A stretch of 64,000 nt of DNA from a virus (taxonomy: Duplodnaviria > Caudoviricetes). Made by a program: the position numbers and the translations under genes. The DNA is taken from positions 1,895 to 65,894 of the IMG/VR virus record IMGVR_UViG_3300025154_000086; one strand, written 5' to 3'. The notes under the pieces were generated by a model, which worked only from the letters and a program-made list of their open reading frames with translations, was not told the DNA's origin and ran no database searches. The stretch's first letter is position 1. Each line of letters starts with the position of its first letter. Positions 24,901 to 56,714 of this stretch are shown here, piece after piece.

Positions 24901-27428
24901 TCGAAAATTTTCTTATCCGCATCTTTTGCACTTAAATTTTGTTTTTTCTCACTTCCGTTTTTATTCCCCATTTGTCCATAATGAAGTTGCACCCCCAATG
25001 CTCGCCCGTTCCCCGCAATTACGTTATAATCTTCGTCAACAATAGGTGCGCCGTCCTGGGCGGTCTTACTGTCGCTTAAAAAGTCAAAATTCGGATTCGT
25101 TGCTATCTTATTTATTTGTGCTATACTTTGCGGGGTGCTGCGGTCTCTATTCTGCGCGTCTGATATTGTGTAATCTTTGTTCGGCGTTCCATCCGTTTTA
25201 TGCGATGCAATTATTTCATCAGCTTCAACTATCTCATAACTTCCGCTCGTTACATCCTTATCATCGTTACCAAAATAAATCTTCACCGGGTCTAAATTAC
25301 TTATAATTCCCTTACTCTCTTTTGTCGGCTCAAACAAACCTTTCCCGTTAATCGTTTTCAACTCATCAAACGTTATACTTTTTTCATCTCCCCCTTCATG
25401 GTAGAAAACTTTATCTTTTGAAATATCCGTAATAGGTAAACGCTTTTCTCCCAACTGTAATTTCTTAACAGGTCCATCAATTGAAGTCTGCCAGCTCATC
25501 TTTTCCGGTTTAAACTCACTCTTTATCCTAAACGTTCTTCCTCCCGCTTCAATTTCTTTGCTCGCGTGAAATCTATTTGCCCCAATTTCAAAACCCCGCT
25601 CCTTATGCAACTTTTCAAAATCGGCAAAATCTTTTGTCCCTAAAACTTCCTTATTCTTTTTATCCCTTTCAGATTGCAATTCGGTTAATCGTTTCTTCTC
25701 CTCTTCGCTTTGCAAAGGCTCATCTTTTCTTCGCGTCCATCTGCTCGGTCTGCTTCCTCCCCGCTTCTCAAATCTTGCCCGTTCCTCTTCCGTATATTCC
25801 GGCTTAAAACTAAATGTTCGCGCCGGTTCTCTTACCGTTTCAATTCCATTCACCCCTCCCGATCTTTCAACTATAACATTCTTTCTCTCTTCGTCTCTTT
25901 GTTGTTTCAAATCATTATTATAATCTTTGTGAGAAAGGAACAATCCCCGTTCCTTGGTTTCTGCGTCTTCCAAACTGTACCCGTCATCCGTAATATCCCT
26001 AATTTTGTACTTCTTCCCCATAAAGTTCATAGTATAATCTTCTTTTCCGTCAACCATAAAACTAATATTCTGATCCTCCGGGTTGTAATTCCATCTTACC
26101 GTTCTAAGTCCGTTTTCTGTTTCAACGCGCTTTACCATTTCAAGATCGTTCTTTCGTCCAAATCCCGTTTTCTGTGCCGCGCTAACAAAATCTTTATACC
26201 CCGGCTGCTCTTCATAACTGATATTGTAATTATCCGCTCCTCCTTGACCTACTCTTCGCTCTGCTTCACCCTGGTAAACATCGCTATACTTGTTTAATCT
26301 GCCCTCTCCTCCGCCTTTGGCGGATTGCGGTTCGTATTTCTCCAACTGCTTTTCAAGATTGATCACCTTCAGCTTATTATCTGCCGTGTTTATTAATGCC
26401 GCTTTGCCCGTTATCCTCAATATCTTTGCATCATTCCCCTCATACTGTATCGTGTCTCCTTCCTTCATCAGTTGATGCTGCTTAACCTTTTCAACATGCT
26501 CTTTCTTGTTGATCACTTTCATTTCCCCGCCAAAATTTACCGCAAGCATATTTGTTGTGGTTTCCGTTATCCGGCCAAGTTTATTATCTTGTCTAACTAC
26601 ATCACCTACCTTAAAATCTTCTAACTGATAATCCGCGCTGCCTTTCGCGCTTTCTCCTTCAACAGATTTTCCGGCTTCATCTCTCCATTCCTTTTTACCG
26701 GAAGGAAGTTCATACAGATAAATATATCCGTCTCCATTCTTCGCCGGTTTACGTTCAAGATATTTGTGGTTTGGCTTCATTCCTCCCTTTGCGTTCCATG
26801 CCGTTCCACCTCCTGCTGACTGCCCACTGCTGACTGCCGACTGATTAATATTAAACACTTTCGGAGTTTTAAAAGCTACCGCAACTCCCTTAAACAAAAG
26901 TCTTTTTGAAATTGTTAAATTCGTTTCTGTAATTCCTTTTAACATCAACGTATTATTGAAAATCCCTTTTCCTTCAACCTTCGCCTCAACCTCTTTTCCG
27001 TTTATCGTTTTAATAAAGGTAACTATCTTTCCCTTTCTCAATACTCTGTCCGGATCAGTTAATACATCCCTAATAATTTCTCTCTCACTCTTCACCAATA
27101 CTTTCCCGGCAATCGTTTCAAACTTCCCCGATACTTTCATCTCTTCTTTATCTTCCGGCACCGCTTCGTGTTGGTCCAAACTCTTTAACAAAACATTATT
27201 TAGCTCTTCCCTTTTTAACCTTTTAAGCTCACTCCCCTTTTTAAGAATTACAAAATTCTTCGAATAATCCACAACCTTTCCAAAATTTGTGTTCATTCCC
27301 TTTTTTACACAATTTACCGGTTTACTATTCAGTAAATGCCCTGCATCATCGCGCGTAACAATGCAGTTACACTCAATAGACTTAGTAACAAATCCCCCCT
27401 CATAATCCGGTAATTTATATAAAAACAT
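21924..27428 (-). CDS. polyvalent protein with ddrB-like ParB domain and C-terminal zincin (HExxH) domain
   Basis: 1834 aa; IIASH, QNRDR, GAPIV and IAGNGR motifs; THEFAH; KOW-like repeats. Confidence 0.78.
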   Translation of the reverse strand: MFLYKLPDYEGGFVTKSIECNCIVTRDDAGHLLNSKPVNCVKKGMNTNFGKVVDYSKNFVILKKGSELKRLKREELNNVLLKSLDQHEAVPEDKEEMKVSGKFETIAGKVLVKSEREIIRDVLTDPDRVLRKGKIVTFIKTINGKEVEAKVEGKGIFNNTLMLKGITETNLTISKRLLFKGVAVAFKTPKVFNINQSAVSSGQSAGGGTAWNAKGGMKPNHKYLERKPAKNGDGYIYLYELPSGKKEWRDEAGKSVEGESAKGSADYQLEDFKVGDVVRQDNKLGRITETTTNMLAVNFGGEMKVINKKEHVEKVKQHQLMKEGDTIQYEGNDAKILRITGKAALINTADNKLKVINLEKQLEKYEPQSAKGGGEGRLNKYSDVYQGEAERRVGQGGADNYNISYEEQPGYKDFVSAAQKTGFGRKNDLEMVKRVETENGLRTVRWNYNPEDQNISFMVDGKEDYTMNFMGKKYKIRDITDDGYSLEDAETKERGLFLSHKDYNNDLKQQRDEERKNVIVERSGGVNGIETVREPARTFSFKPEYTEEERARFEKRGGSRPSRWTRRKDEPLQSEEEKKRLTELQSERDKKNKEVLGTKDFADFEKLHKERGFEIGANRFHASKEIEAGGRTFRIKSEFKPEKMSWQTSIDGPVKKLQLGEKRLPITDISKDKVFYHEGGDEKSITFDELKTINGKGLFEPTKESKGIISNLDPVKIYFGNDDKDVTSGSYEIVEADEIIASHKTDGTPNKDYTISDAQNRDRSTPQSIAQINKIATNPNFDFLSDSKTAQDGAPIVDEDYNVIAGNGRALGVQLHYGQMGNKNGSEKKQNLSAKDADKKIFDLMKRIMPHREDTQESAIKYAKNNLGGGRSDVLVKEGKLSADESKFVSEYANGDFAENNLSIALNNKSEKYRSDLLKNAEKYGFSRDDVEKMKQPVLVRRTNVDKKEAQRLGAISNTSQMLATEEREAAKGKATRIDDATINNLADMFTKGNHESLNQYLDEIGPDVVGELLKKKIIPENEAHLYIDPKSGKMDAGHKEKVKQILTQSVLGESSQHFEKIPEAARAGTVKSLGDIFALKGKAGDLVPHLQEAVKMLAKYEAVKDNFKSPDDFVKQAANDAFEPLKGSKEELALFDLLADPIREVTKENGKKEKKNVISDFIRKYKLSMEGDMFSGGLPPEAAFARIFKPKYQNGVNTEEAYKQQIRDAIKVGHKIPKEVLDKYPDLEREYNSQHVLKSISRKMFIFGKKVFMKSMDMAKNVLAPSKKNPAVKRWQAVESKTQTTNDKKQGGENKQELYNKFKKELEDKQSKGEINSKTKNSALYKKRVELGLQNDPSIRAVIATKTKRKPRPSDFDKSDEPLFYDEVKDVIEQLNFPIYEVQNWTDENGNPEINYWGYDKMEALKELDDSDRVEGFENREQDVNLYEHKPTFDKAKLKEFQELYETLSQDEFEEKFPDKKSVANFVEYDENRGGNVIDSRTIKPINETTEEILSDVQNKFGGKYVDVPIKFDTEGDTIEFMRLRIANHTGNYYSIGGDGDRPGLSIVIANQDPTYKRFGRSENEIPNEYHFDEDATAEEIIDFINEKIEEKKADVSSETSATNESKPQLLKTEPNAKSGADDLGSDKRAEAQTKSSEEKNKKQVPQTETENFIHPSIKEIDKELASEVVSAFNKLCEMYGVDKIKEKITIKAFSISIPGTGKSPIAFVKRMEDEGLTLYLDAGKFRNKSDFEVRIKQQIEFGFLPKVGLTPVKIIITHEFAHILQHINYDTDYINKISKEGTASEDAHLICKYAENNKMDEEACAFIIDYAGQGNEITKRILMEFYNKQKEK

Positions 27429-39131: not shown

Positions 39132-41145
39132 AAATCTCCCTTACATACTCTGCTAACTTTATTGTTCGCCGCAAATCAAGATTCATCTTTTCCGCAATCA
39201 TCTTCAGCATCTTATCCGGTTCAACTTCTTCCCTTAACAAGTCGCTCTTAATATTCATAAATTGCTCCGCAAGTTCCCTTAACTTCGCTTCGCTTAATCC
39301 GTCAATTCCATCTGCCATACCTGCTACTCCTTGCGTTTCAAGCGCCATAATATCGTGGTTTAATATTGCTACAACATCCTGCACATCTTTGCTGGAAGAA
39401 ACCGGATGATCAATTTTATTCCCAAGGTTTAACAACCTTTCCCCTTCGCTTACCCATAAACCGGAAGGAGAAATTTTCTTCATCAATATTTGCAGCTTGT
39501 GTGTTTCTTCCGTGTCATCGCAAATTGCAAGATTGTTATTCCAAACATTCCACCTTACCATTTCGTAAAGCTTAACTTGCTGTTTGTTGCTAAAATTATA
39601 AGTGTTGGCATCCTTCCCCTTCGCCTCAAGCTCCTGCCTAAGCTTTTCATTCTGGAAGTGATCACTGTTTGCCGTTTTTATATTTGGGAATGCTTTTAAA
39701 AATATCGAAAGGATATCGCCTATCTTCAAATAATCAACCGGACAACCGGGAGAGGGTTCAATAACTACAAGTACATCTATTACCGGCTTTTTGTTCGTAA
39801 GGATAACTTCGGTTTCAGCGTCTAAGAATAATTCCATTCTCTTTACGTCAATCGTTTCGCCGTAACCTACGCCAACAATAAACCTATCCTTCGTTTTACC
39901 CGCGTCATAAGCAAGGCATCTTTCACGCTTGTCTCCCACAATATTTATCACTTCAATGCTTGAAACTGTTTTTGTTTGTCCGTTCTCTAATTTTCGATAC
40001 ACTTTAGTTTGCTTGTAATGTATCTTGTTTTTAATCGCCGGATCAACAGCTTCTTTTAGTTTAAAAGAATAAGGCTGGTAAAAATTATCCTTGCTTATCG
40101 GCTTTACACAACCGAACCGGCAATTTGCACGTAAGGGATTTGTCCTAAACTCCTTTTCAAACATCGCCTCGGTTCTTGCCGGGTTAAAATCCCAAGTTGT
40201 TGCTTTCATTCCGTACATATCGGGATTCTTTAGGGTTCCGCTCTCATCAAGTTCTTGCGATAGCTCAAACCGGTAGTTCGTTAAGTCGAAATCCGTTTCA
40301 TTCGGATAAGCCCATTCCATTGTTTTCCCAACGTTACCGGGAAAACTTGCCTTTGTATTTCCTAAAAGAAGTTCTAACAATCCCTCTGCCTGTGCATACG
40401 TTACTTTTGTTTCAGCGCGTGAAAGTTCGTCTGCATAGCCCCTAAGCATGTGTATGCCTTCCGGCGCTTGCTTGCTGCTGTTAAAAGATAAAAGCCTTAT
40501 GCTTCCGCCTCCGCTCTTTTTTGTCGGGAAAATAATTTCTTTCTTTTTCAGATCTCCAAACTGCTCTCTAAGGTCCAACCCCGCAAACTTCTCAAACCAA
40601 TTTTCTCCGGTTTTAGGGTCTTTTGTTAGTTTTAACACGTTCTTAACACTCTCAAAAAAAGCGTGTTTAGCCTGCAGTTCATTAACAACACTAACATTCA
40701 CCAGATCGAATGTCTTCTCCGGAGGATAGGGCACAAGCGAACCGGTTATCTCTCCAAAGTATTCGTGCGGTTTCTCTAAACAACTTATCCGATAGGTTGC
40801 GTAAGCAATATCACCCTCAGCCCAATAGTTTTTCCCTCCCTTCATCCCAACAAGCAAAACGATCTCGTGAAACTTCTTATCCCAAATAGCCGGATCATTC
40901 CCCCAAACAGCAAGATAAGCATCTCGCTGAAGTTTGCCCGGTTCTCTGCCTAAGAATTCTCTTAGGAAAGAAATCACGTCTGCAACATCGCCAACATCGC
41001 GCCGGTATATTGCGTTCTTACTCGTTTGTATCGATAATGTGTACTTCCGTTGGTTGTCCTGATTCCTCCACCTTCTCTTCGTTCTTGGCGAATAACTCTC
41101 TAACCACGGGGTTAATTTCGATTGCTCTTGTTCTAAGTCTAACAT
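39121..41145 (-). CDS. terL: terminase large subunit (start uncertain, probably near 41020)
   Basis: VGMKGGKN Walker A variant, YADE Walker B, RNase H acidic residues AYDAG and KIDHP...KDVQD. Confidence 0.85.
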   Translation of the reverse strand: MLDLEQEQSKLTPWLESYSPRTKRRWRNQDNQRKYTLSIQTSKNAIYRRDVGDVADVISFLREFLGREPGKLQRDAYLAVWGNDPAIWDKKFHEIVLLVGMKGGKNYWAEGDIAYATYRISCLEKPHEYFGEITGSLVPYPPEKTFDLVNVSVVNELQAKHAFFESVKNVLKLTKDPKTGENWFEKFAGLDLREQFGDLKKKEIIFPTKKSGGGSIRLLSFNSSKQAPEGIHMLRGYADELSRAETKVTYAQAEGLLELLLGNTKASFPGNVGKTMEWAYPNETDFDLTNYRFELSQELDESGTLKNPDMYGMKATTWDFNPARTEAMFEKEFRTNPLRANCRFGCVKPISKDNFYQPYSFKLKEAVDPAIKNKIHYKQTKVYRKLENGQTKTVSSIEVINIVGDKRERCLAYDAGKTKDRFIVGVGYGETIDVKRMELFLDAETEVILTNKKPVIDVLVVIEPSPGCPVDYLKIGDILSIFLKAFPNIKTANSDHFQNEKLRQELEAKGKDANTYNFSNKQQVKLYEMVRWNVWNNNLAICDDTEETHKLQILMKKISPSGLWVSEGERLLNLGNKIDHPVSSSKDVQDVVAILNHDIMALETQGVAGMADGIDGLSEAKLRELAEQFMNIKSDLLREEVEPDKMLKMIAEKMNLDLRRTIKLAEYVREIYDY

Positions 41146-48738: not shown

Positions 48739-51483
48739 CTAATTCCTAATTATCTCAAAATATCCATCATACAGCTCAATTCGTTGGTTAATTTGTTCTA
48801 TCAACTCCGGGCGGTGAGTTATAACTATCGTATTGTAAACCCCGCTTCGTTTATGCGCTTCTTCAATCACCTTAAAATAACGTTGTGCATTTTTTAAACT
48901 CAATGGTCCATCGCTCTCATCCAAATAGCCTGTATCGGCTTTTATTGCTCCCTGTGTCCTCTTAAAATGAGCAATTGCAAGTTGTAGTGCCGTTTCAACT
49001 TCAACTTTCTCCCCGCCGCTTTTGTACATGATGTTACAAATTCCATCTTCATCCAAAACTTTTATTTTGAAAACTTCTATCTGCTTTTTCTTATCCTTGG
49101 TAAAAGTTGTGGTTTCAAAAACTATTCGAAATTTGTTTTCGTAGTGGCTCAAAGATTCATTTGTTAACCTCGATATTTCAGAACCGGAGATTTCCAACTT
49201 AAGAACCGGAATTCCAGTCTTTGACATACTTTCTCTTATAATCCCCCATTGCTTTATTTCCTCCTCAATAAACAATCTTTCCCCATTCTTGCTGTTTATC
49301 TGATCTTCCAAAAACTGCTTTCTCACCAATTTTTCATTAAGTTCAACAACCTCTATTTGGAGATCGTTTATTTTTTTATCCGATTCTTTAAGTAAAATTT
49401 CCGCTTCTTCAAGTTCTTCCCTTTTTGCCCGTAAAGTTAGTTCGCAATGTATCTTCGCCGGTTTTAGCGTCTCATCAAGTTTTAATTTGTTTGCAGCTAA
49501 ATCTTTATTCAAATTTTCTTTCTTCTCATCATACTTAGCCGTTGCGCTATTTCTCTTCTCCAAAAAGAAATTTAAGATCGTACCCTTTTCTTTTTCCAAT
49601 AACTGTTTATAGGTAAGTATTTGATTTTCAACATCTTGTAAGTTATTTGTTAGCCTTTCTTGTATGTTAACAACTCTTTCTTGCAAATGCTTAATATTGT
49701 TGCGTTTATCTTCACTTGTCTGATTAATGTTCTTAATTTCACTTTCCCATAACTCGGCGTTCTTTTCTGCTTCAGCAAGTTCTTTATCAAGCGCTTCCCA
49801 ATTGGTTTTTGCAAGTTCGGCTAACTTTCCCGCAACTTCCTTTATTTTCACACGCAATACGTTCACGTCTTCATTTATCAATGCTATTTGATCGGTAAAA
49901 TTCTCTTTGATCTCTTTCTCTTTGGCTTTTATTTCCTCATCAGCCTCATCCAAAAACTTTTCAGTGTTTTCAATTTCCCAAAATATTGCATCGCGCTCTT
50001 CTTCCTTACCGACTATTTTAGCATCATAATCATTCTCAACATCTTTCAGCGTATCCTTGCTTTCCATCGCTCTTGTAAGGAACATACAACCCCGTCCTAC
50101 AACTTCGCTGCATGGCACTTTATCAATTGTTGAGATTTCTTCCTTTAACCGGTCTAATCCGGTTTTTTTTAATTCCTCTAAAGATGCAATTAACTCATTT
50201 ACCGTAGTAAGTTGATGATCTTTCTGAGATTTGACTTTATCCGTATTTGCGTAACTTTCGCGCAAAACTTGTAAAAGTTTTTCTTCCCCTTCTTTCCTCT
50301 CTTGCAATTTTCCTATTTCTAAAAGATGTTCTTTCTCTTTTGCAAGCAATTCTGCGGCTTCTTCGCTCCGTTTTTTCTTTTCGTCAAGATTTAACGCTAT
50401 CGTTCCCCGGTTCCCGAGTATCGTCTTACTCCGGGTTATCTTCGTCTCAAAATATATTTTTTGAATTTCATTATTTTTAATTTCTTCTTCATAATCAAAA
50501 TTCTGCTGAGTGATTCCCGTTTTCTCTTTCTCTGCTTCTTCATTAAGATAGTTCTTCTTTGTGTCAAGTTCCTTAATGTGTTTATCAAATTCATTCGAAG
50601 TGTTGAATGTGTTTATCTCCGCCATTTTCTGCCCTTCAATTTCCTGAAGTTCAAGTTCTTTTTTCTCGTCAAGGAATTCAACATCTTCCACAAGTTCGTT
50701 TATCTTTACAGTAATTTCTTCTTGCTGTTCAATTTTAAGATTAAGTTCTGCTATGCGAATATTGCAGTTCTCTATTTCTTCCCTAACCAACTTTATTTTC
50801 GCTTCGGTATCTTTTTTAGATGAAGTTGTTTCTTCCCGCTCATAAATCTTCTTTTCGATATCCTCTTTTGAAGTATTGCACTCTGTTTTTTCTTCAGTAA
50901 GGGTTTTTAGTTCACGTTCCAAAACTTCTAATTTATTTTGCTCTTTTTGAAGATACTTTTTTGAAAGTTCTTCGCGTGGACTGTATTCGTTAATACCAAG
51001 GATCTCATAAAATAATTTGCGGAGGTCTCCTTCTTGTAAAGAAAATATTCCCTTGCTTGCCTGCGCTGCAAAAACAGAAGTAAAAAATAATTTTTGTGAA
51101 CCGAAAAGTTTAGTCACTTCTCTATCATAACTTCCTTTCAGTCCGTCATTCAAAGCCAAACCGTCTCTGTAAAGATATGCTTCGCTTTTTCCGGTAAGCG
51201 CGTCAATCATCAGCTTTGATTCGTAAATGTTTTCGTCAAATGAAAATTTTAGTATGCGGTATGAGTTTTTTAATTCGAAGTGTTCTTCTAACGTTCCTGG
51301 TTTGCTGGGGAGTTCTCTGTACGGTTGTGAATTGTCTATGATCGTTGTTTTGCCGTAGCCGTTGTCTCCGGTTATGGCTATTAATCCCGGTCCAAATTGG
51401 CTAAAATCAATTTCAATTTCTTCTAACCCTAATTTTTTCCGTATGCCAATGGCACCGCGTAATTTTAATGAAAGTAATCTCAT
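48739..51483 (-). CDS. sbcC: SbcC/Rad50-like ATPase
   Basis: GDNGYGKT, long coiled coil, KSGGE, LDE and ITH motifs. Confidence 0.9.
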   Translation of the reverse strand: MRLLSLKLRGAIGIRKKLGLEEIEIDFSQFGPGLIAITGDNGYGKTTIIDNSQPYRELPSKPGTLEEHFELKNSYRILKFSFDENIYESKLMIDALTGKSEAYLYRDGLALNDGLKGSYDREVTKLFGSQKLFFTSVFAAQASKGIFSLQEGDLRKLFYEILGINEYSPREELSKKYLQKEQNKLEVLERELKTLTEEKTECNTSKEDIEKKIYEREETTSSKKDTEAKIKLVREEIENCNIRIAELNLKIEQQEEITVKINELVEDVEFLDEKKELELQEIEGQKMAEINTFNTSNEFDKHIKELDTKKNYLNEEAEKEKTGITQQNFDYEEEIKNNEIQKIYFETKITRSKTILGNRGTIALNLDEKKKRSEEAAELLAKEKEHLLEIGKLQERKEGEEKLLQVLRESYANTDKVKSQKDHQLTTVNELIASLEELKKTGLDRLKEEISTIDKVPCSEVVGRGCMFLTRAMESKDTLKDVENDYDAKIVGKEEERDAIFWEIENTEKFLDEADEEIKAKEKEIKENFTDQIALINEDVNVLRVKIKEVAGKLAELAKTNWEALDKELAEAEKNAELWESEIKNINQTSEDKRNNIKHLQERVVNIQERLTNNLQDVENQILTYKQLLEKEKGTILNFFLEKRNSATAKYDEKKENLNKDLAANKLKLDETLKPAKIHCELTLRAKREELEEAEILLKESDKKINDLQIEVVELNEKLVRKQFLEDQINSKNGERLFIEEEIKQWGIIRESMSKTGIPVLKLEISGSEISRLTNESLSHYENKFRIVFETTTFTKDKKKQIEVFKIKVLDEDGICNIMYKSGGEKVEVETALQLAIAHFKRTQGAIKADTGYLDESDGPLSLKNAQRYFKVIEEAHKRSGVYNTIVITHRPELIEQINQRIELYDGYFEIIRN

Positions 51484-51640
51484 CTTAGAACTCCTTTGAA
51501 ATAAAAATGAACGGCAGTTTGCACATTAAGAGATTGAGCTTTAATGCGAGGGAAGTCAAACTGCCGTTGGGAAAAATTTTTATTTTGCTCAATCTCTGTC
51601 TCAAACTTAAAAAATGTTATTTTATAAAACAATACATACA

Positions 51641-53263
51641 TTAACTTTTTTGCAAATTATTTTGTAGCCATCTTCGCCTCCGCATTAACTCCGGATAAGT
51701 TTCAAGCTCAATACTCCTTCCCCCAATTTTTATCCAGTCCTTATGCCCTATTTGCCAATCCACAGTGCCGTTTCCTCTATTCTTGGCATAAACCATAGCT
51801 AAATCATTTATCTCTTTCCTAAGCGTCTTTATCTTCTCAAATACCGGTATCTCCGCTTCAGTGGGCTGCTGTACTACGCTCTGTGCTATCTGTGCGGCTT
51901 TTGCTTTTGGCAAACCAAACATTGTGGAAATCTTATCCGTAAAATTTGTTTTTATCTCCATCGTGCCGGTTACTTCTGCTGAAATTACTTTGAAATCCTT
52001 TTGCTCCTTCTCTCTCGGTTCAATTTCTTTTCCGAACAAATCTTTATCATATTTCTCTTTGGCAGTATTAAGCGCATGATCTCTTTCCTGTTCAATTTCT
52101 CTGGCAAATCTTACCAGCTCGTGCCGCTTAGGAATGTACAAATATGCGTCCTGACTTTTAAGATGTGCCAATACTCTTATAAACCTTCCCGTAACCTGTC
52201 TGAAGAATAATTCGCTCTCTACATTTGTTGCATAAACCCCAACACGCAAACGAGGGATGTCAACCCCTTCCGAAACCATTTTAACGCTAATCAACCATTT
52301 ATCTTTTCTTCGCTTGTACTCCTTAATATGTTTGCTCGCATTCTTATCGTCACTCACCGCTATTACCGGAGATTCGCCGATAAGTTCGAATATCATCTTC
52401 TTAATTCTCGCCGCATGCTCTTGATCGATCGCCAAGACCAATCCTCCCGCATCCGGGTGACTGCCTCTCCTTATTTCATTTAATTTTTTATCAGCGTCAA
52501 GAAAGAATTGCTTCATAAACTCACCGAACGGATCTAATGCGGTTCTTAATCTTTCACTTTCTCTTGCCTGATTGATCTGCTCTTCAAAATTATGCTTATA
52601 AGTCACTCCGTCCGTCTGCCAAGTCATTATTCCATCATAAGCTGGAAAGTATATCGCCCTGCAAACATTATCCTCAACTGCTTGCTGGTAGGAATAAACA
52701 TAATCCGAAACACTAACATCATTTACATATTTCACAAAAGGGATAGGATTATTATCTCTTCTAAATGGCGTTCCACTTAATGCTAATCTAAAAAAAGCAT
52801 TCTCAAAAGCCGTTCTTAGTGCATCTCCCCATGTTTTACTTTCCCCCGCATGATGGATTTCATCCAATATTACCAAGGTACTTGTGCTATCAGTAAAATG
52901 TTTATGAATATCCGCGTCCATACCAAGTTGCGCATAGGTAAGCACAACTCCGTGGTAGTCGCTTCCTTCTTTTCCAATACGGTTCTCCACCATTGGGTCA
53001 AGATCAATTCCGTAAAGATGCGCGTCTTCAGCCCATTGCTTTTTTAAGTGCTCTGTTGGAACCACCGCAACAATTCTTTTTATGTAGTGCATAAAATAGA
53101 GTTTGTGTGCAAACCGCAAAGCCGTTCGGGTTTTACCGGATGCCGGCGTTGCTACAAGCAAAGCATCCTGCTCTTTGGCTTTCACTTTTCGTATTACTAT
53201 TTCGTTGGCGTCCTGCTGCCAATCACGCAGCGGATATTCCCAAGGAATTAATGATCTTGGCAT
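51641..53263 (-). CDS. SF2 DEAH helicase (ResIII/UvsW-like)
   Basis: ATPASGKT, DEIHH, SGTPFR, EGVDIP and Q..GR motifs. Confidence 0.88.
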   Translation of the reverse strand: MPRSLIPWEYPLRDWQQDANEIVIRKVKAKEQDALLVATPASGKTRTALRFAHKLYFMHYIKRIVAVVPTEHLKKQWAEDAHLYGIDLDPMVENRIGKEGSDYHGVVLTYAQLGMDADIHKHFTDSTSTLVILDEIHHAGESKTWGDALRTAFENAFFRLALSGTPFRRDNNPIPFVKYVNDVSVSDYVYSYQQAVEDNVCRAIYFPAYDGIMTWQTDGVTYKHNFEEQINQARESERLRTALDPFGEFMKQFFLDADKKLNEIRRGSHPDAGGLVLAIDQEHAARIKKMIFELIGESPVIAVSDDKNASKHIKEYKRRKDKWLISVKMVSEGVDIPRLRVGVYATNVESELFFRQVTGRFIRVLAHLKSQDAYLYIPKRHELVRFAREIEQERDHALNTAKEKYDKDLFGKEIEPREKEQKDFKVISAEVTGTMEIKTNFTDKISTMFGLPKAKAAQIAQSVVQQPTEAEIPVFEKIKTLRKEINDLAMVYAKNRGNGTVDWQIGHKDWIKIGGRSIELETYPELMRRRRWLQNNLQKS

Positions 53264-53536
53264 TTAGTTATCTTTTTTACTTTCTGTCCGATTAAGAAAA
53301 TCTTCAACATCTTCTTTTTGTTCCAATAATTTTTTTGTTAAGAAAAAATCTTCTAAAATATCTCTTGCAACTTTAGATGGATTTTGGTTTAACTCTTTAG
53401 CTAAAGATTCAAGAACGTTGTTAAGTTCAGAATCAATTCTAATTTGTAAAGTTTTACCTTTTTCTTGTAATACAGAAGTTTGTATTACGCAATCGTTTTG
53501 CCTCTTATGTTTACCGTAATAACGAGTAAATTCCAA
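53264..53536 (-). CDS. ribbon-helix-helix DNA-binding protein
   Basis: LQIRID...L..LA......S...R..L pattern. Confidence 0.6.
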   Translation of the reverse strand: MEFTRYYGKHKRQNDCVIQTSVLQEKGKTLQIRIDSELNNVLESLAKELNQNPSKVARDILEDFFLTKKLLEQKEDVEDFLNRTESKKDN

Positions 53537-53565
53537 TCTTTTTCTCCTTGCGGGTTAAGTATTAG

Positions 53566-53883
53566 TTAGCCAGCATTTTTGCTCAGTTCTCTTTTCTTAT
53601 CACAACCAAACGGTTTACCCGCAATGGTTGTAATTACTCTACAAGTTGGGCAAGGTCTTGCACTCCAATTGTGCGGGTCTTCGTACAATAAGTCTATTAA
53701 AACCTCAATCAATTTTTCATATTGTCCGCAAAAATCATGGCTAACTCGCGGCTCTTGCTGAATTGCTAACTGATTTGCATATTGTTCCATTGCCGTCAAC
53801 GCATCGTTATATCGCACAGAATCTTTTAGTTCTGCATGGATTCTCCCAACAATGTCACACAATATTTGTTCTTTAGTTTTCAT
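53566..53883 (-). CDS. cassette 1 ORF, starts inside att site 1
   Basis: AAAGGA RBS before ATG 53883; stop lies in GTTA; CPTC motif. Confidence 0.7.
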   Translation of the reverse strand: MKTKEQILCDIVGRIHAELKDSVRYNDALTAMEQYANQLAIQQEPRVSHDFCGQYEKLIEVLIDLLYEDPHNWSARPCPTCRVITTIAGKPFGCDKKRELSKNAG

Positions 53884-53939
53884 AATATTTCCTTTCTTAA
53901 TTAGTTTCCGCAATCAGCAAAGCCGCCACTACGTTATAA
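53739..53939 (+). repeat. attC-like site 1
   Basis: GGCTAAC TCGCG GCT[C]TTGCTG[A]ATTGC...GCAATCAGCAAAGC CGCCACTAC GTTATAA. Confidence 0.8.
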
Positions 53940-54167
53940 ATCTTTTTGGCTAACCTTTTTAAAGTGTTTCCATTTGGGGTTTTCAGTTAATAAAATTGGG
54001 TTTGCATCAATTACATCTTGCAAGTCTGGGTGTCTATTTTTACAATTTCTATACATACAAAACCAGGGGGTTGATCCGCCATAATTCCCAGCATAATACA
54101 ACCCCTTCCGTTTACACGAAGGGCAAACATATCGTTCAACGCTCCACCCAGTTTCAACACCTTTCAT
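53934..54167 (-). CDS. cassette 2 ORF, zinc-ribbon protein
   Basis: CPSC...C...C; ATG overlaps the leader stop. Confidence 0.7.
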   Translation of the reverse strand: MKGVETGWSVERYVCPSCKRKGLYYAGNYGGSTPWFCMYRNCKNRHPDLQDVIDANPILLTENPKWKHFKKVSQKDL

Positions 54168-54259
54168 ATGCCCGCCAAAAAATTTATAACTCGCAATTCT
54201 AAAAGACAAAAACTGTCTTTTATCGTTTCGGGTTTTGCTATTGTTTTAATTTGTTCCAT
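54164..54259 (-). CDS. 31-aa leader peptide encoded in att site 2 (MEQIKT...RVINFLAGI)
   Basis: AAGGA upstream; ATGA overlap with the cassette 2 gene. Confidence 0.55.
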   Translation of the reverse strand: MEQIKTIAKPETIKDSFCLLELRVINFLAGI

Positions 54260-54309
54260 TTAATTTATTCCTTCTTCGTTTTTGCTTTTAAGTTGCCACT
54301 ACGTTATTT
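54184..54309 (+). repeat. attC-like site 2
   Basis: TTATAAC TCGCA ATT[C]TAAAAG[A]CAAAAAC...GTTTTTGCTTTTAAGT TGCCACTAC GTTATTT. Confidence 0.82.
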
Positions 54310-54720
54310 TGATTTTTTGGCTAATATATATTTACTGTAGTTGGTATCACCAGTTTCGATGTTTTCAAGATTCCCAACATTATTCGTTTTCCACTTGCCT
54401 TTTTCTAAAAATACTCTGTCAAATCTGCCATGCCATTTGCCTGCTCTTTCTACTTCCGTCCCATCACTATATTTAGTGGGTAGGCAAATACAGCAAAGTT
54501 TCATCCCTTTCCTATCTTCAATTCCAGTCCAGTCATAATCGTTTGGTGTCCATTTAGCGGTCATCATTGTACACGCTGTATTCTCCACGCAACCACAATT
54601 ATCACATTGTATCAAACTCATGTCTAACTCCCGCCAAAAATCAAAATAACTCACAACTCTAAAAGACTGCAAATCTGTTTTTGGCATTTTGTTATTTGAT
54701 ATTTTATTAATTAAGTTCAT
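54304..54720 (-). CDS. cassette 3 ORF, Cys-rich, starts inside att site 3
   Basis: CDNCGCVENTA...LCCIC...GKWHGRF. Confidence 0.7.
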   Translation of the reverse strand: MNLINKISNNKMPKTDLQSFRVVSYFDFWRELDMSLIQCDNCGCVENTACTMMTAKWTPNDYDWTGIEDRKGMKLCCICLPTKYSDGTEVERAGKWHGRFDRVFLEKGKWKTNNVGNLENIETGDTNYSKYILAKKSK

Positions 54721-54764
54721 TCTCTTTTATTCTTGGCAGCTTTTAAGTTGCAACTACGTTATAA
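54644..54764 (+). repeat. attC-like site 3
   Basis: AAATAAC TCACA ACT[C]TAAAAG[A]CTGC...GCAGCTTTTAAGT TGCAACTAC GTTATAA. Confidence 0.82.
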
Positions 54765-54989
54765 ATCTTTTTTATCGGGAATTTGTTCCAGCAAGTATGG
54801 TGGCATGTGGAATATCTTATCCTCACGCCGTATCAACCTAGTTAAATTGCTACCATCATCATAAACGCACCTTGCTACACCACGACTAATCTGTAATATT
54901 TTAATCGGTTTTTTATCATTGTCCAGTACGTTGTAAAATCTTTTTTTGAATATAAATTCTAAGAAAATGTTTATGTCAACTTTTCTCAT
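54759..54989 (-). CDS. cassette 4 ORF
   Basis: 76 aa; stop lies in GTTA. Confidence 0.65.
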   Translation of the reverse strand: MRKVDINIFLEFIFKKRFYNVLDNDKKPIKILQISRGVARCVYDDGSNLTRLIRREDKIFHMPPYLLEQIPDKKDL

Positions 54990-55054
54990 ACAACCGCTAA
55001 AAAATTTATAACTGCAAAGAGGTATGGTTTAATATGTTTAAGTTTATTGTCCAT
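54986..55054 (-). CDS. 22-aa leader peptide in att site 4 (MDNK...AVINFLAVV)
   Basis: AGGA upstream; ATGA overlap with the cassette 4 gene. Confidence 0.5.
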   Translation of the reverse strand: MDNKLKHIKPYLFAVINFLAVV

Positions 55055-55096
55055 TAAAGTTGTTCCTAAAGCCGCTGCAAATAAGTTTCCACACTG

Positions 55097-55417
55097 TTAT
55101 ACTTCATCTTCATCCAATTCATCAAAATCTCCGTCATTATCAAATTCATCAAATATTTCGTCTGTTATATCCAATTGCTCCATTACTGCTTTAATGTTGC
55201 GCTTTTGTAAGTGTTTACCATCAATAATCTCTAAACCGATAATATATGCACGTTTAATAGCGTCATCCAGCTCATCCATTTCAACTTCAAAATAAGGTGT
55301 CTCGTCTACCAATCCTCCCCAGTGTATTACCTTAACTTCCCATCCATTCGTGCTGTAGTTCATTTCCAGATCGAAATATTCTTGTAAAAATTTTAAATGT
55401 CTTACAAATTCTTCCAT
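55097..55417 (-). CDS. acidic hypothetical protein ending at the last GTT core site
   Basis: 106 aa ORF. Confidence 0.65.
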   Translation of the reverse strand: MEEFVRHLKFLQEYFDLEMNYSTNGWEVKVIHWGGLVDETPYFEVEMDELDDAIKRAYIIGLEIIDGKHLQKRNIKAVMEQLDITDEIFDEFDNDGDFDELDEDEV

Positions 55418-55457
55418 CTTATTTCTCTTCCTTTTAACTTTCTACTTTCCACTAATT

Positions 55458-56714
55458 CTACAACTCTTCCGGCACTTCCACCGGCGCAATATTTTGCTCA
55501 ATCAACTCAATCTTTTCACGATAACTGCGTTTAAGTATTTTTTCATCGCCGTTTGTCTTAAACACTTCACCTCTTCCGGTAATTGTGCAATACTCGGTAA
55601 ATTCTTCAGCTAAATTTTTTGCCTCCATTATTTTTACGCTGCGGCTTTCCCTCTGCACAGGAACAATGTCAGCCTCAAGAATGGCATCCGCCCCAAACCT
55701 TGCCTTTAACTCTTCCTTTTTTGCAGCGGTAATTTGATCTTGCAAATCTTCTTCAATCTTATACTTTATCTTTACCTCAGCATTCTCCGGCACTTCCTGG
55801 TTGATCACAAACTCGCCGTTAATAAATTCCGCCGTTACATTTACCATTGGCCGGACTGTCTTAAACTTTATTTTCTCTGATGAAACTTTTACCCCTTCAT
55901 CTGTCTGATCGAATTTGCTAACGATAAAATATTTCTGTTCCGTCTCCCCAAAATTGCAATTGTAAAGAGAGGAGGTGTAAAACATATCCGGCTCAAACTC
56001 CTGCCAATTGTGAATATGACCAAATGCGTAAACATCGGCTTTGGCTTTCCGTAATGATAGAGGGGAAATTATTATATCTTGCCCGGTTAATGGTTGTCCT
56101 GTGCTTAATCTGCTTCCTCTTACGTTACCGTGGAAGGTAAAAGCTTTTGGACATTTATATCTATTGTTCGTTATTCCGAACATATCCATTAATCCGTCAA
56201 ACACTTCTCCAAACTCTTTATTATTATCATCAATGCTCATGTCTCTAACGATCATTCCCTTTGTGGGATAAGGCATAAGGTTTACAATAAATTCCGGTTC
56301 TTCTTCATAACCGGTTTCTTCATCACGCAAAATATCAACACCAAGTATATTACTAACGTGATCGTACAGCGCAAGCGAAACCGGGTATTCGTAAGCAAAA
56401 ATGTTCTCCCTCAATTGATGGAGAAGACTAATACTCCCGGCGTAATCGTGGTTATTGTTACCCTTATTGATGATAATTGCTTTTACATGCTTTGCCAATT
56501 CTTTTAGATATTGGAAACCGTACTCAACACCGCTGTTTTCGCCGAAGTTTTGTTTTGTTTCCCAAAAATCTCCGCCATGAACTATGTAATCAACATGATT
56601 GTTTTTTACATATTCCACCATTTGGTCAAGCGATTCACACGCTTTCCTTTTTCTTTTCGGGTCTTTATCCAAATGCCAATCAGCGGTAAATAAACCTATA
56701 AGTTGATTTTTCAT
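55458..56714 (-). CDS. sbcD: SbcD/Mre11-like metallophosphoesterase nuclease
   Basis: ADWH, GGD, GNNNHD and FGHIH motifs. Confidence 0.88.
   Translation of the reverse strand: MKNQLIGLFTADWHLDKDPKRKRKACESLDQMVEYVKNNHVDYIVHGGDFWETKQNFGENSGVEYGFQYLKELAKHVKAIIINKGNNNHDYAGSISLLHQLRENIFAYEYPVSLALYDHVSNILGVDILRDEETGYEEEPEFIVNLMPYPTKGMIVRDMSIDDNNKEFGEVFDGLMDMFGITNNRYKCPKAFTFHGNVRGSRLSTGQPLTGQDIIISPLSLRKAKADVYAFGHIHNWQEFEPDMFYTSSLYNCNFGETEQKYFIVSKFDQTDEGVKVSSEKIKFKTVRPMVNVTAEFINGEFVINQEVPENAEVKIKYKIEEDLQDQITAAKKEELKARFGADAILEADIVPVQRESRSVKIMEAKNLAEEFTEYCTITGRGEVFKTNGDEKILKRSYREKIELIEQNIAPVEVPEEL

Follow-up and report, generated by a model that had tools for sequence, protein, structure and literature searches.

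We identified, in an uncultured groundwater phage, an array of small reversed genes that is best read as a decayed integron (CALIN) that sits in a phage operon, flanked by sbcD and a helicase gene, and is served by IntI in trans. We consider this reading probable, at roughly three chances in four. Integrons are mainly known as bacterial gene-capture devices. Here, we observed attC-type anatomy and polarity of the sites, self-complementary cassette ends, replacement of genes at AAC/GTT among sister phages, and IntI remnants at the ends of the arrays. The initial annotation of this DNA had already taken the hairpins between the genes for attC sites, and the R boxes, both extrahelical bases, the bottom-strand polarity and the self-complementary ends of the cassettes support this. 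The attC reading is strengthened further because the locus is hypervariable with AAC/GTT junctions and because IntI remnants occur in two phage lineages. Three intact sites and one degenerate site were found within 1.4 kb without intI, which corresponds to the CALIN definition (at least two attC sites, no intI) if the sites are attC.

A cassette array between two replication genes

The analyzed stretch of phage DNA has a length of 64,000 nt (hereafter the window), and the array occupies positions 53565-55102. It is placed between two replication genes, and all genes are encoded on the minus strand (Table 1). The neighborhood includes recombination genes encoding SbcD, a helicase and SbcC. The array is composed of single-gene units, each flanked by its own inverted repeat GTTA.../...TAAC of 14-19 nt. 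These repeats are I1 (19 nt, 89%), I5 (15 nt, 100%), and I9 and I11 (both 14 nt, 93%). Each of the genes A to E has the TAA within TAAC as its stop codon.

In every hairpin core we found a ribosome-binding site together with a short leader ORF, either fused to the following gene or coupled to it by overlapping stop and start codons. The leader of gene C comprises 33 aa in frame with a start inside site 3, and the phrog_11861 match of this gene is restricted to residues 34-136. Homologues of gene C were found in jumbo-phage contigs, where they lack arms and are uninformative on mobility. In gene E the leader is likewise fused in frame. The 22-aa leader in site 4 ends in a TGA that overlaps the gene B start codon (ATG), and the 31-aa leader in site 2 shares an ATGA overlap with gene D.

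Table 1. Features from the SbcD-like gene to the helicase gene. Positions refer to the window; bases in square brackets are bulged.
Feature	Position	Strand	Remarks
SbcD-like nuclease gene	55458..56714	-	upstream conserved flank; Pfam Metallophos E 5.9e-07, phrog_100
Gene A, 106 aa	55097..55417	-	no family; first variable gene; ends GTATAAC; without 5' arm
Site 4, degenerate attC-like	55009..55102	-	TAAC 55102-55099, GTTA 55012-55009 kept; inner (L) stem lost; leader ORF 55054-54986
Cassette gene B, 76 aa	54759..54989	-	no family; arms 55012-54994, 54776-54758; repeat I11
Site 3, attC-like	54647..54761	-	TAAC 54761-54758 to GTTA 54650-54647; TAAC-N6-GCAACT TAAAAG CTGC ... GCAG[T]CTTTTA[G]AGTTGT-GA-GTTA
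Cassette gene C	54304..54720	-	core 54304-54621 = phrog_11861; arms 54650-54632, 54321-54303; repeat I5
Site 2, attC-like	54187..54306	-	TAAC 54306-54303 to GTTA 54190-54187; TAAC-N6-GCAACT TAAAAG CAAAAAC ... GTTTTTG[T]CTTTTA[G]AATTGC-GA-GTTA; leader ORF 54164-54259
Cassette gene D, 77 aa	53934..54167	-	Cys-rich; no family; arms 54190-54172, 53951-53933; repeat I9
Site 1, attC-like, covarying stem	53742..53936	-	TAAC 53936-53933 to GTTA 53745-53742; TAAC-N6-GCGGCT TTGCTG A TTGC ... GCAA[T]TCAGCAA[G]AGCCGC-GA-GTTA
Cassette gene E, 105 aa	53566..53883	-	no family; arms 53745-53727, 53583-53565; repeat I1
Conserved 44-nt segment	53526..53569	-	directly after last cassette
Arc-like small gene, 90 aa	53264..53536	-	between 44-nt segment and helicase; phrog_582 E 4.9e-4
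Proximal boundary TAAC^TAAATG	53261..53270	-	TAAC 53270-53267; helicase ATG 53263-53261
Superfamily-2 helicase gene	51641..53263	-	downstream conserved flank; ResIII E 1.6e-20, phrog_16

The sites combine attC anatomy with a different spacing

The site positions of the initial annotation agreed with ours within 3 nt. An unpaired C and A, six nucleotides apart, had been described for the three intact sites, and in all three we found six paired bases between the bulges, which are C and A on the plus strand and G and T on the sense (minus) strand. In sites 1-3 the bulged G is located 8 nt before GTT, followed by 6 bp and then by the T, on the arm opposite AAC. The covariation noted for site 1 is also present, with GCGGCT/AGCCGC in place of the GCAACT/AATTGC or GCAACT/AGTTGT found in sites 2 and 3. 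Site 4, described as having lost its left arm, has retained TAAC and GTTA and lacks the inner stem.

To the extent covered by the available text of Nivina et al. (2016; PMC5027507), the attC bottom strand has R' = RYYYAAC and R'' = GTTRRRY, and its extrahelical bases lie opposite AAC, with position 16 usually G, the last one at 23/24 a T, and a 6-bp stem between them. TAAC and GTTA were present at all four window sites and at 21 of 22 catalogued sites, the remaining one having GAAC; the full 7-nt R consensus was matched only in part, e.g., by TTATAAC. Among the catalogued sites the 6-bp base stem occurs in 13 versions; 19 sites have G as their first bulge and 3 have C. Compared with the canonical sites of the same text (attCaadA7, VCR2), the phage sites share the AAC/GTT boxes, G16, T23 and the 6-bp stem opposite AAC, as well as an unpaired spacer, a variable terminal structure and a cassette-specific R''/R' match. 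They differ from them by a spacer of 9 nt instead of 5-6 nt on the R' arm, with only 2 nt unpaired on the R'' arm, by lengths of 113-280 nt instead of 57-141 nt, by the location of the ORF on the bottom strand, and by the separate reassortment of genes and cores.

The reversed genes, the 9-nt spacer and the long R pairing had been pointed out as departures from canonical attC, and all three are real. A spacer of 9 nt between R' and L' was found in 14 of 18 strict scanner hits of the phage site class, whereas 38 of the 40 hits that this scanner placed upstream of genuine intI genes have 5-6 nt. We did not find the unpaired central spacer that attC sites have on both arms (5-6 nt each), since the R' arm has 9 nt (L box as in PMC5027507); as folded, the spacer measures 6 versus 2 nt. 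Lengths fall into 113-125 nt (14 of 22 sites) and 186-280 nt (8 of 22), and the latter exceed the published maximum of 141 nt.

We then counted pairs of GTTA and TAAC arms that were complementary at 13 or more of 16 positions and 120-900 nt apart. The window contains four such pairs, exactly at cassettes B, C, D and E, versus a mean of 0.55 and a maximum of 3 in 100 shuffles. Cassette ends had been proposed to pair with each other rather than with the neighboring ends. This holds for C (16/19 versus 10) and E (16/19 versus 12); B and D have one common arm type (13-14/19). The preference for the own arm recurs in five further sequences (L005, L007, L101, G004 and G005). DNA folding energies were unremarkable: sense/antisense z-scores for site 2 were -2.47/-2.19, those for site 3 were +0.87/+0.04, and the two further scores were -0.57 and -1.08. 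The minimum-energy fold displayed the hairpin for site 2 and not for site 3. Folding energy alone is weak support for the sites.

Other repeat families were also considered. A MITE or transposon was rejected for the lack of target duplications and of a transposase, REP/RAYT because the GTAG after TAAC is not conserved between sites, and IS200/IS605-like ends for the lack of TnpA. An Rfam search gave chance hits only; Rfam has no attC model. A MAFFT alignment of the sites lost the stem register.

Scanning specificity and polarity

For scanning we used a home-made strict scanner coded from the rules of Nivina et al. (2016; PMC5027507), and a relaxed version; both have low sensitivity. In the window the strict scanner produced three hits, all on the sense strand at sites 1-3, and none elsewhere on either strand. 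Sites 1 and 3 were matched with 0 mismatches and site 2 with 1 mismatch, each with a spacer of 9, and the relaxed finder detected the same three sites. Site 4 was missed by both scanners and was recognized by reading the sequence. Applied to 80 bacterial intI loci, the strict scanner found 10 hits, of which 9 were located upstream of intI and on its sense strand; for 78 IMG/VR intI loci it found 35, with 31 in this position and on this strand. Shuffled bacterial loci gave a single hit in 5 x 925 kb on both strands. As a polarity control we used the integron of Vibrio phage MK672802. On the ORF-sense strand of this integron the AAC arm carries the bulges, which is opposite to what is seen in the window. 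In canonical IMG/VR arrays ORF orientation was ambiguous, with intervals covering several cassettes.

Related phages differ at AAC/GTT junctions

Comparison of related phages between sbcD and the helicase gene had been suggested as a check for cassette exchange. Indeed, four relatives carry different genes in this interval, with junctions at AAC/GTT. The helicase protein is 91-97% identical across the relatives and the flanking DNA 73-90%. The interval itself is unrelated in L005/L006, L007, L100 and L101; gene A, for example, is not present in L005 or L007. Homology of the relatives stops approximately 20 nt past the stop codon of the SbcD-like gene, at window position 55437. On the helicase side the junctions are AAC^TA and TAAC^TAAATG, and the latter is the point where four of five variants converge in the alignment. 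Three of the four relatives have enough upstream sequence (L100 has only 477 nt), and each of these three contains at least one self-complementary cassette. The 44-nt segment after the last cassette is common to the window, L007 and L100, though the upstream gene differs, and different cassettes join it at AAC^TA. This segment is a candidate attI-like entry site. The Arc-like gene is present in the window and in L100 and is replaced in L007.

Variation was also seen at the level of sequencing runs. Run X4 may represent the source sample; other contigs of this run diverge at the GTT boundaries 53569 and 53933. In a public run, a single contig of 7.9 kb contains the entire array region. Coverage in runs X5, X7 and X9 was patchy with a depth of 2-4, and gaps in these runs are uninformative. 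The cargo is typical of phages: that of the cassettes in L100 and G004 includes a DNA methyltransferase, and a related array encodes a Lar anti-restriction protein. BLASTN of the array against 50,697 GenBank phage records gave no match, the closest GenBank phage relative in the helicase search was only 37% identical, and a second helicase profile scan of IMG/VR yielded no further relatives.

Integron integrase remnants at the ends of the arrays

A host or distant phage recombinase had been proposed to act on the sites. The 65.9-kb record contains no tyrosine recombinase (0 matches to PF00589 in G000). No intact IntI was detected in the six phage records G000-G005, and the full-length tyrosine recombinases of the relatives are ordinary phage integrases. 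Matches to TIGR02249 in the phage records were fragments only, in G001/G002 (84 aa) and G005 (48 aa). A complete integron with intact intI and adjacent attI and Pc was not found in these records.

L005 5733-5987 encodes the last 84 codons of an integron integrase at the end of the array (TIGR02249 E 3.9e-29; 102 bits versus 74 for XerC/D). Among solved structures, VchIntI4 (entry 2a3v) is the best match to this remnant. Over all 84 residues it is 75-78% identical to full-length IntIs, among them P0004, which scores 341 bits versus a cut-off of 265. L192 9863-10006, at the array end of an unrelated phage contig with sites of the same class, corresponds to the IntI N-terminus, with the first 48 codons, and lies 63 nt after the last TAAC (TIGR02249 E 2.5e-5; BLASTP versus P0004 5e-8). 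Relative to their arrays, both remnants lie downstream and on the side of the bottom strand, which matches the canonical platform. The IntI clade of the remnant has one named member, from a genome of Candidatus Doudnabacteria, a CPR bacterium. In a profile scan with an IntI alignment, the IntIs among the matches listed were at most 47% identical.

The site class recurs and its genes and cores reassort separately

The phage site class was also found in two unrelated phage contigs, G004 and G005. Relaxed hits on the gene strand and the other strand numbered 8 and 0 in G004 and 7 and 2 in G005, compared to 0.33-0.65 per strand in shuffles. A scan of IMG/VR with a 17-nt motif retrieved 26 loci, 24 of which resemble chance single hits. 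The G005 array includes one site with a canonical 6-nt spacer. In G004 one gene is present twice (1 mismatch in approximately 450 nt) with different cores on both sides. The identity of the two copies stops 8 nt before AAC, and at the 5' edge the flanks have only GTTA in common. In a second G004 cluster some modules are reversed while the site strand is unchanged. Arm types are shared between different genes, namely B and D of the window and L191 2588.

Gene modules, which extend from GTT to AAC, and hairpin cores, which extend from AAC to GTT, are reassorted independently of each other. A canonical unit, in which a top-strand ORF and its own attC move together, was not observed: the ORFs are on the bottom strand, and the G004 copies have different cores. 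Independent reassortment is not what a single IntI crossover at AA^C would predict, and it hints at exchange inside the arms; it implies crossovers on the GTT side also.

Discussion

The decayed-integron reading suggests how such an array might work. As single-stranded DNA, the coding strand can fold each site into a hairpin whose 5' arm carries AAC and whose 3' arm carries GTT, with the bulged G and T at the positions read by integron integrases. The coding strand is the attC bottom strand, and therefore the genes are reversed compared to bacterial cassettes. Phage transcription runs along this bottom strand, so that each reversed cassette gene is read from the phage operon, and the hairpin loop before a gene would supply its ribosome-binding site and leader ORF. 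Recombination probably takes place on folded sites while the phage DNA is single-stranded during replication, with cassettes being gained and lost, and IntI would act in trans, from the host or another element in the same cell. The ancestor probably had its own intI, of the clade whose one named member comes from a genome of Candidatus Doudnabacteria.

The separate movement of genes and cores would also fit an account in which the hairpins and arms, with their conserved boundary sequences, act chiefly at the level of RNA or translation, homologous or short-homology recombination of the phage shuffles the genes, and the IntI pieces are old relics. A crossover within shared arms would end the identity of the G004 duplicates 8 nt inside the 3' arm, as seen; arm types do recur on different genes; selection on the mRNA could preserve structures that contain a ribosome-binding site and a leader in every core; and the array is situated among recombination genes. 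We nevertheless regard this account as unlikely. It leaves unexplained why the G and T bulges occupy the exact integron positions, why two independent IntI remnants lie at array ends in canonical orientation, and why the G005 array has a site with the canonical spacer, and the flanks at the 5' edge of the duplicated module are alike only in GTTA. Shuffling of this kind has been proposed for the PeSLs, or 'mobile regulatory cassettes', of T4-type phages (Arbiol et al., 2010, PMC2839356; Comeau et al., 2014, PMC4122927), which in the available parts of these papers carry early promoter and terminator motifs and are shuffled by homologous recombination. Our array resembles them as a hyperplastic, stem-loop-bounded region of small accessory genes whose content differs between close relatives. 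However, it does not conform to the PeSL definition, with 10 promoter-like motifs versus 9.7 expected and 0 terminator-like motifs versus 1.9 expected, and it differs from PeSLs by its attC anatomy and the attached IntI remnants.

A site-specific recombinase other than IntI, Xer-like or an invertase, might instead act on the GTTA.../...TAAC arms and excise or invert modules as in a shufflon. The inverted repeats at both ends of the exchanged unit would agree with this, as would the flipped modules of the second G004 cluster, where the sites keep their strand, and a 70-nt contig of run X4 that links both arms and lacks the gene. Yet no such recombinase is encoded near any array in G000-G005, IntI is the only recombinase trace at array ends, and strand-changing joints were absent among the run contigs, which makes this explanation quite improbable. 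The weak folding z-scores might even raise the suspicion that the repeats arose by chance or through faulty assembly, which we find hardly credible given four arm pairs versus 0.55 expected, the same architecture in five independent assemblies, and the recovery of the whole array in one contig of a public run.

Phage CALINs as such are known. Qi et al. (2023; PMC9892861; Qi, Rajabal, Ghaly, Tetu and Gillings) described 17 from 10,705 NCBI phage genomes and proposed that phages draw on cassette pools. The array described here resembles these CALINs, as far as the accessible text presents them, in being a phage attC array without intI and in its DNA methyltransferase cargo. They were obtained with IntegronFinder/HattCI from cultured or NCBI phage genomes, and the typical cassette orientation is described in that text for two of the 17. 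Unlike them, our array has reversed genes, a 9-nt spacer, R pairing over 14-19 nt and loops with translation starts. The integron of the temperate Vibrio phage MK672802 (Qi et al., 2023) is similar in that integron parts including intI are carried by a phage. Nothing is missing from that integron, its attC sites are homogeneous and of the Vibrio type, and its cassettes face forward, whereas we found only intI fragments and reversed cassettes. What is new here is the site class with a 9-nt spacer, along with genes and hairpins that reassort independently. Literature searches on reversed cassettes in phages returned nothing beyond Qi et al. (2023), and those on integrons of Patescibacteria nothing specific.

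One may speculate that the array is more than debris of a bacterial integron and represents an integron variant adapted to phages, with a site class of its own, a core that serves as portable translation-start module, separate exchange of genes and cores, and a distinct IntI clade that serves it. We regard this as doubtful, and equally so the corresponding reading of the 9-nt R'-L' spacer, the R stems of 14-19 bp and the crossovers at both R boxes as traits of such a variant. If true, there would be a cassette pool tied to phages of the little-known Candidatus Doudnabacteria group.

Whole cassettes distinguish near-identical phages at this one locus, as they do variants inside a single groundwater sample, and the locus is a natural example of phages swapping counter-defence and orphan genes. 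The limits that strand choice and spacing set for IntI can be approached through three features, namely the reversed gene layout, the changed spacer, and the exchange of genes separately from hairpins. Furthermore, the site rules can be used to find arrays that standard attC models may overlook.

An array of cassettes between sbcD and a helicase gene

The parent IMG/VR virus record is linear, 65.9 kb long and about 73% complete, with the window covering 64 kb of it, and the public runs holding this DNA are groundwater metagenomes. Every long ORF of the window is carried by the minus strand. In sense order the array reads gene A, site 4, B, site 3, C, site 2, D, site 1, E, a 44-nt segment and an Arc-like gene, and ends in TAAC^TAAATG at the helicase start (the caret marks the junction). 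The genes sbcD and sbcC, whose products form a nuclease cutting DNA hairpins, are separated by the helicase gene and the hairpin-rich array (48739-56714).

Genes B, C, D and E each have GTTA-N-TTTTTGGC directly 5' of the start codon and GCCAAAAA-N-TAAC across the stop codon (inverted repeats I11, I5, I9 and I1, in this order). The entire window holds four GTTA/TAAC pairs of at least 13/16 complementarity, which are exactly cassettes B, C, D and E, against a mean of 0.55 and a maximum of 3 in 100 shuffles. The array of small genes and hairpins seen in the initial annotation is non-random. The annotation's claim that cassette ends complement their own partner holds for C and E, whose arms match at 16/19 positions with their own partner and at 10-12/19 with the neighbour's; B and D have one arm type in common. 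The stop codon of all five genes A-E is the TAA of TAAC, which the initial annotation had placed inside the crossover GTTA.

Features of the array locus and of corresponding loci in other phage contigs
Feature	Record	Position	Remark
SbcD-like nuclease gene	window	55458-56714	array flank
Superfamily-2 helicase gene	window	51641-53263	other array flank; SbcC-like gene next
Leader/loop ORFs	window	54986-55054, 54164-54259, 54622-54720	
Leader/loop ORF	L101	99-242	
Leader/loop ORF	L191 (stretch of G004)	2908-3144	78-aa Cys/His-rich protein
Locus content	window		A-E and Arc-like gene
Locus content	L005		one 101-aa gene and integrase fragment
Locus content	L007		four other genes
Locus content	L100		methyltransferase and Arc-like gene
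Locus content	L101		two other genes
Full site	L005	5585-5705	directly before integrase remnant
Integrase remnant	L005	5733-5987	84 residues
Second site cluster	L191	11809-12936 (G004 24517-25644)	same strand, 8-nt spacers

The hairpins have the anatomy of attC sites in reversed orientation

From TAAC to the loop, the 5' side of a site consists of 6 unpaired nt, a 6-bp base stem, a further stem and a long A-rich loop. The returning arm contains a bulged T, 6 bases later a bulged G, and then the 6-bp base stem, 2 nt and GTTA. Site 4 is without the inner stem. Both the pair of bulges 6 apart, T then G on the returning sense-strand arm, and the covariation at site 1, where GCGGCT/AGCCGC replaces the GCAACT/AATTGC or GCAACT/AGTTGT stems of sites 2 and 3, had been described before and were recovered here. 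Since the 22 catalogued sites use 13 different base stems, structure is kept rather than sequence. Folding energy adds little to the case for the sites, with z-scores (DNA, sense/antisense) of -2.47/-2.19 for site 2, +0.87/+0.04 for site 3, and -0.57 and -1.08 for one site of the related contig L101.

The part of Nivina et al. (2016; PMC5027507) used here gives R' = RYYYAAC and R'' = GTTRRRY for the attC bottom strand, extrahelical bases opposite AAC (G at 16, T at 23/24, a 6-bp stem between), spacers of 5-6 nt and a length of 57-141 bp. From these rules we built a strict scanner in which the R'-side spacer was free from 3 to 10 nt. On both strands of the window it found three matches, at sites 3, 2 and 1 on the sense strand with 0-1 mismatches, and no match elsewhere in the window. 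Among the matches listed for 80 bacterial intI loci, 9 of 10 were 5' of intI and on its sense strand, as were 31 of 35 at 78 IMG/VR intI loci; shuffled bacterial loci gave 1 match in 5 x 925 kb. Given this placement, the scanner recovers real attC sites in the correct place and strand, but only a minority of them. In 38 of the 40 real attC sites that it found the spacer was the canonical 5-6 nt, whereas it is 9 nt in the phage sites, a departure already noted in the initial annotation.

In the integron of Vibrio phage MK672802, the AAC arm of the ORF-sense strand bears the bulges. In the window they occupy the opposite arm, which puts the genes on the bottom strand of attC and inverts the canonical arrangement, as proposed earlier.

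A motif scan of IMG/VR revealed arrays of the same class in two unrelated phage contigs. In G004 all matches (9 strict, 8 relaxed) fall on the gene strand. In G005 the gene strand carries 4 strict and 7 relaxed matches, the opposite strand 1 strict and 2 relaxed. Their cargo includes methyltransferases, an RNA-ligase-like protein and a Lar restriction-alleviation protein. One G005 site (40373-40463, 91 nt long) has a canonical 6-nt spacer inside an array whose other strict matches have a 9-nt spacer. The second site cluster of G004 contains a forward-facing Lar gene (TIGR03655, 50.3 bits, cut-off 39.6) and a pair of small overlapping genes in the opposite orientation that resembles a toxin-antitoxin cassette; the loops here contain TTGACA-like motifs.

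Gene content varies among related phages

As the initial annotation had proposed, we compared related phages between sbcD and the helicase. Helicase searches returned the IMG/VR records L005 (=L006; 91% protein identity) and L007 (97%) and the metagenome contigs L100 and L101 (96%). SbcD and helicase share 73-90% DNA identity with these relatives, whereas the intervening DNA shows no alignment, save for the 44-nt segment common to L007. Window and relatives together have five different gene contents. Self-complementary GTTA/TAAC cassettes are present in L005, L007 and L101, that is, in 3/3 relatives with enough upstream sequence (L100 has 477 nt only). Window, L007 and L100 converge at (C/T)AAC^TA before the shared segment, and 4/5 variants at TAAC^TAAATG before the helicase. 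Because five different neighbours abut one conserved segment, we infer that the 44 nt are a candidate attI-like entry site.

Contigs of the public run X4, possibly the source sample of the window, branch from it at the GTT boundaries 53569 (an 819-nt contig, depth 80.7 vs 43) and 53933, where a version of the shared segment is fused straight to the GTTATAAATC arm. At 53953/54171 a 70-nt contig (depth 25) joins the 3' and 5' arms of D with the gene absent; it is the "empty" palindrome of a variant with 4 differences in 35 nt.

Integrase remnants adjoin two arrays

The search for an IntI-like recombinase, also suggested earlier, turned up integrase remnants. The L005 remnant matches positions 246-314 of TIGR02249 (integron integrase; E 3.9e-29) with 102 bits, versus 74 for XerC/D, and its best solved relative is VchIntI4. 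Full-length IntIs match all 84 residues at 75-78% identity; one of these, P0004 (341 bits, cut-off 265), is assigned by its NCBI name to a Candidatus Doudnabacteria MAG. In G005, a 48-codon ORF 63 nt after the TAAC of the last cassette matches only integron integrases in NCBIfam (positions 4-43, E 2.5e-5). In both cases the remnant follows the array on the bottom-strand side and is read outward from it, as in a canonical platform. The other recombinases of the relatives, 350 aa long, are ordinary phage integrases.

Within the clade nearest the L005 remnant (P0001-P0014) the sole named member comes from the Candidatus Doudnabacteria (CPR) MAG, a weak hint at which lineage serves these groundwater phages as donor or host. 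In the relatives (L010 416-2429; L011 1441-3460), a 350-aa phage integrase stands beside a 326-aa protein weakly like the C-terminal part of the XisF recombinase; the window record is without this integrase end. Since one relative is classed as provirus, the phage group is probably temperate.

Genes and hairpin cores are exchanged separately

On the bottom strand, canonical IntI crosses over at one point, AA^C, and the gene stays with one attC. Here, genes move independently of hairpins. The same 125-aa gene occurs twice in G004 (1 mismatch in about 450 nt), and identity runs from exactly the G of GTTA to 8 nt before AAC, with unlike hairpin cores on both sides. A gene that G004 shares with G005 (76% identity) also lies between GTTA and TAAC, again within different cores, and different genes are preceded by related cores. 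This separation departs from canonical IntI chemistry: either both strands serve as substrate, so that crossing over takes place at each R box, or exchange by short homology within the arms contributes.

We conclude that this phage carries a real cassette array that derives from an integron and lacks an integrase, and we consider IntI-type exchange in trans likely (roughly three chances in four). Among the systems in the literature portions used here, the closest non-integron analogue is the promoter-terminator stem-loop (PeSL) cassettes of T4-type phages; unlike these, the window array has no enrichment of promoter and terminator signals. The kind of array is already known, as phage CALINs have been published: the text of Qi et al. 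(2023; PMC9892861) reports 3 integrons, 1 In0 and 17 CALINs in 10,705 phage genomes, and attI1 recombination for 5/6 phage attC sites tested. That text makes no mention of reversed cassettes, "antisense" and "opposite" occurring 0 times. New in the variant are the reversed genes, the 9-nt spacer, long R stems, translation starts in the loops and the separate exchange of genes and cores.

Hairpin loops carry translation starts

The hairpin loops contain a ribosome-binding site (Shine-Dalgarno-like motif) and the start codon of a short leader ORF. At sites 4 and 2 the end of this ORF overlaps the gene in ATGA; at sites 3 and 1 leader and gene form an in-frame fusion. All loop ORFs in the table either overlap the cassette gene, in ATGA or TAATG, or are fused with it in frame. 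Homologues of gene C (48-49% identity) in phage contigs of 113-314 kb (L093-L095, 4001-4303) lack GTTA/TAAC arms and have a small GC hairpin in front. Family matches start only past the arm, with phrog_11861 on residues 34-136 of C and DUF7446 on residues 49-110 of an L007 gene.
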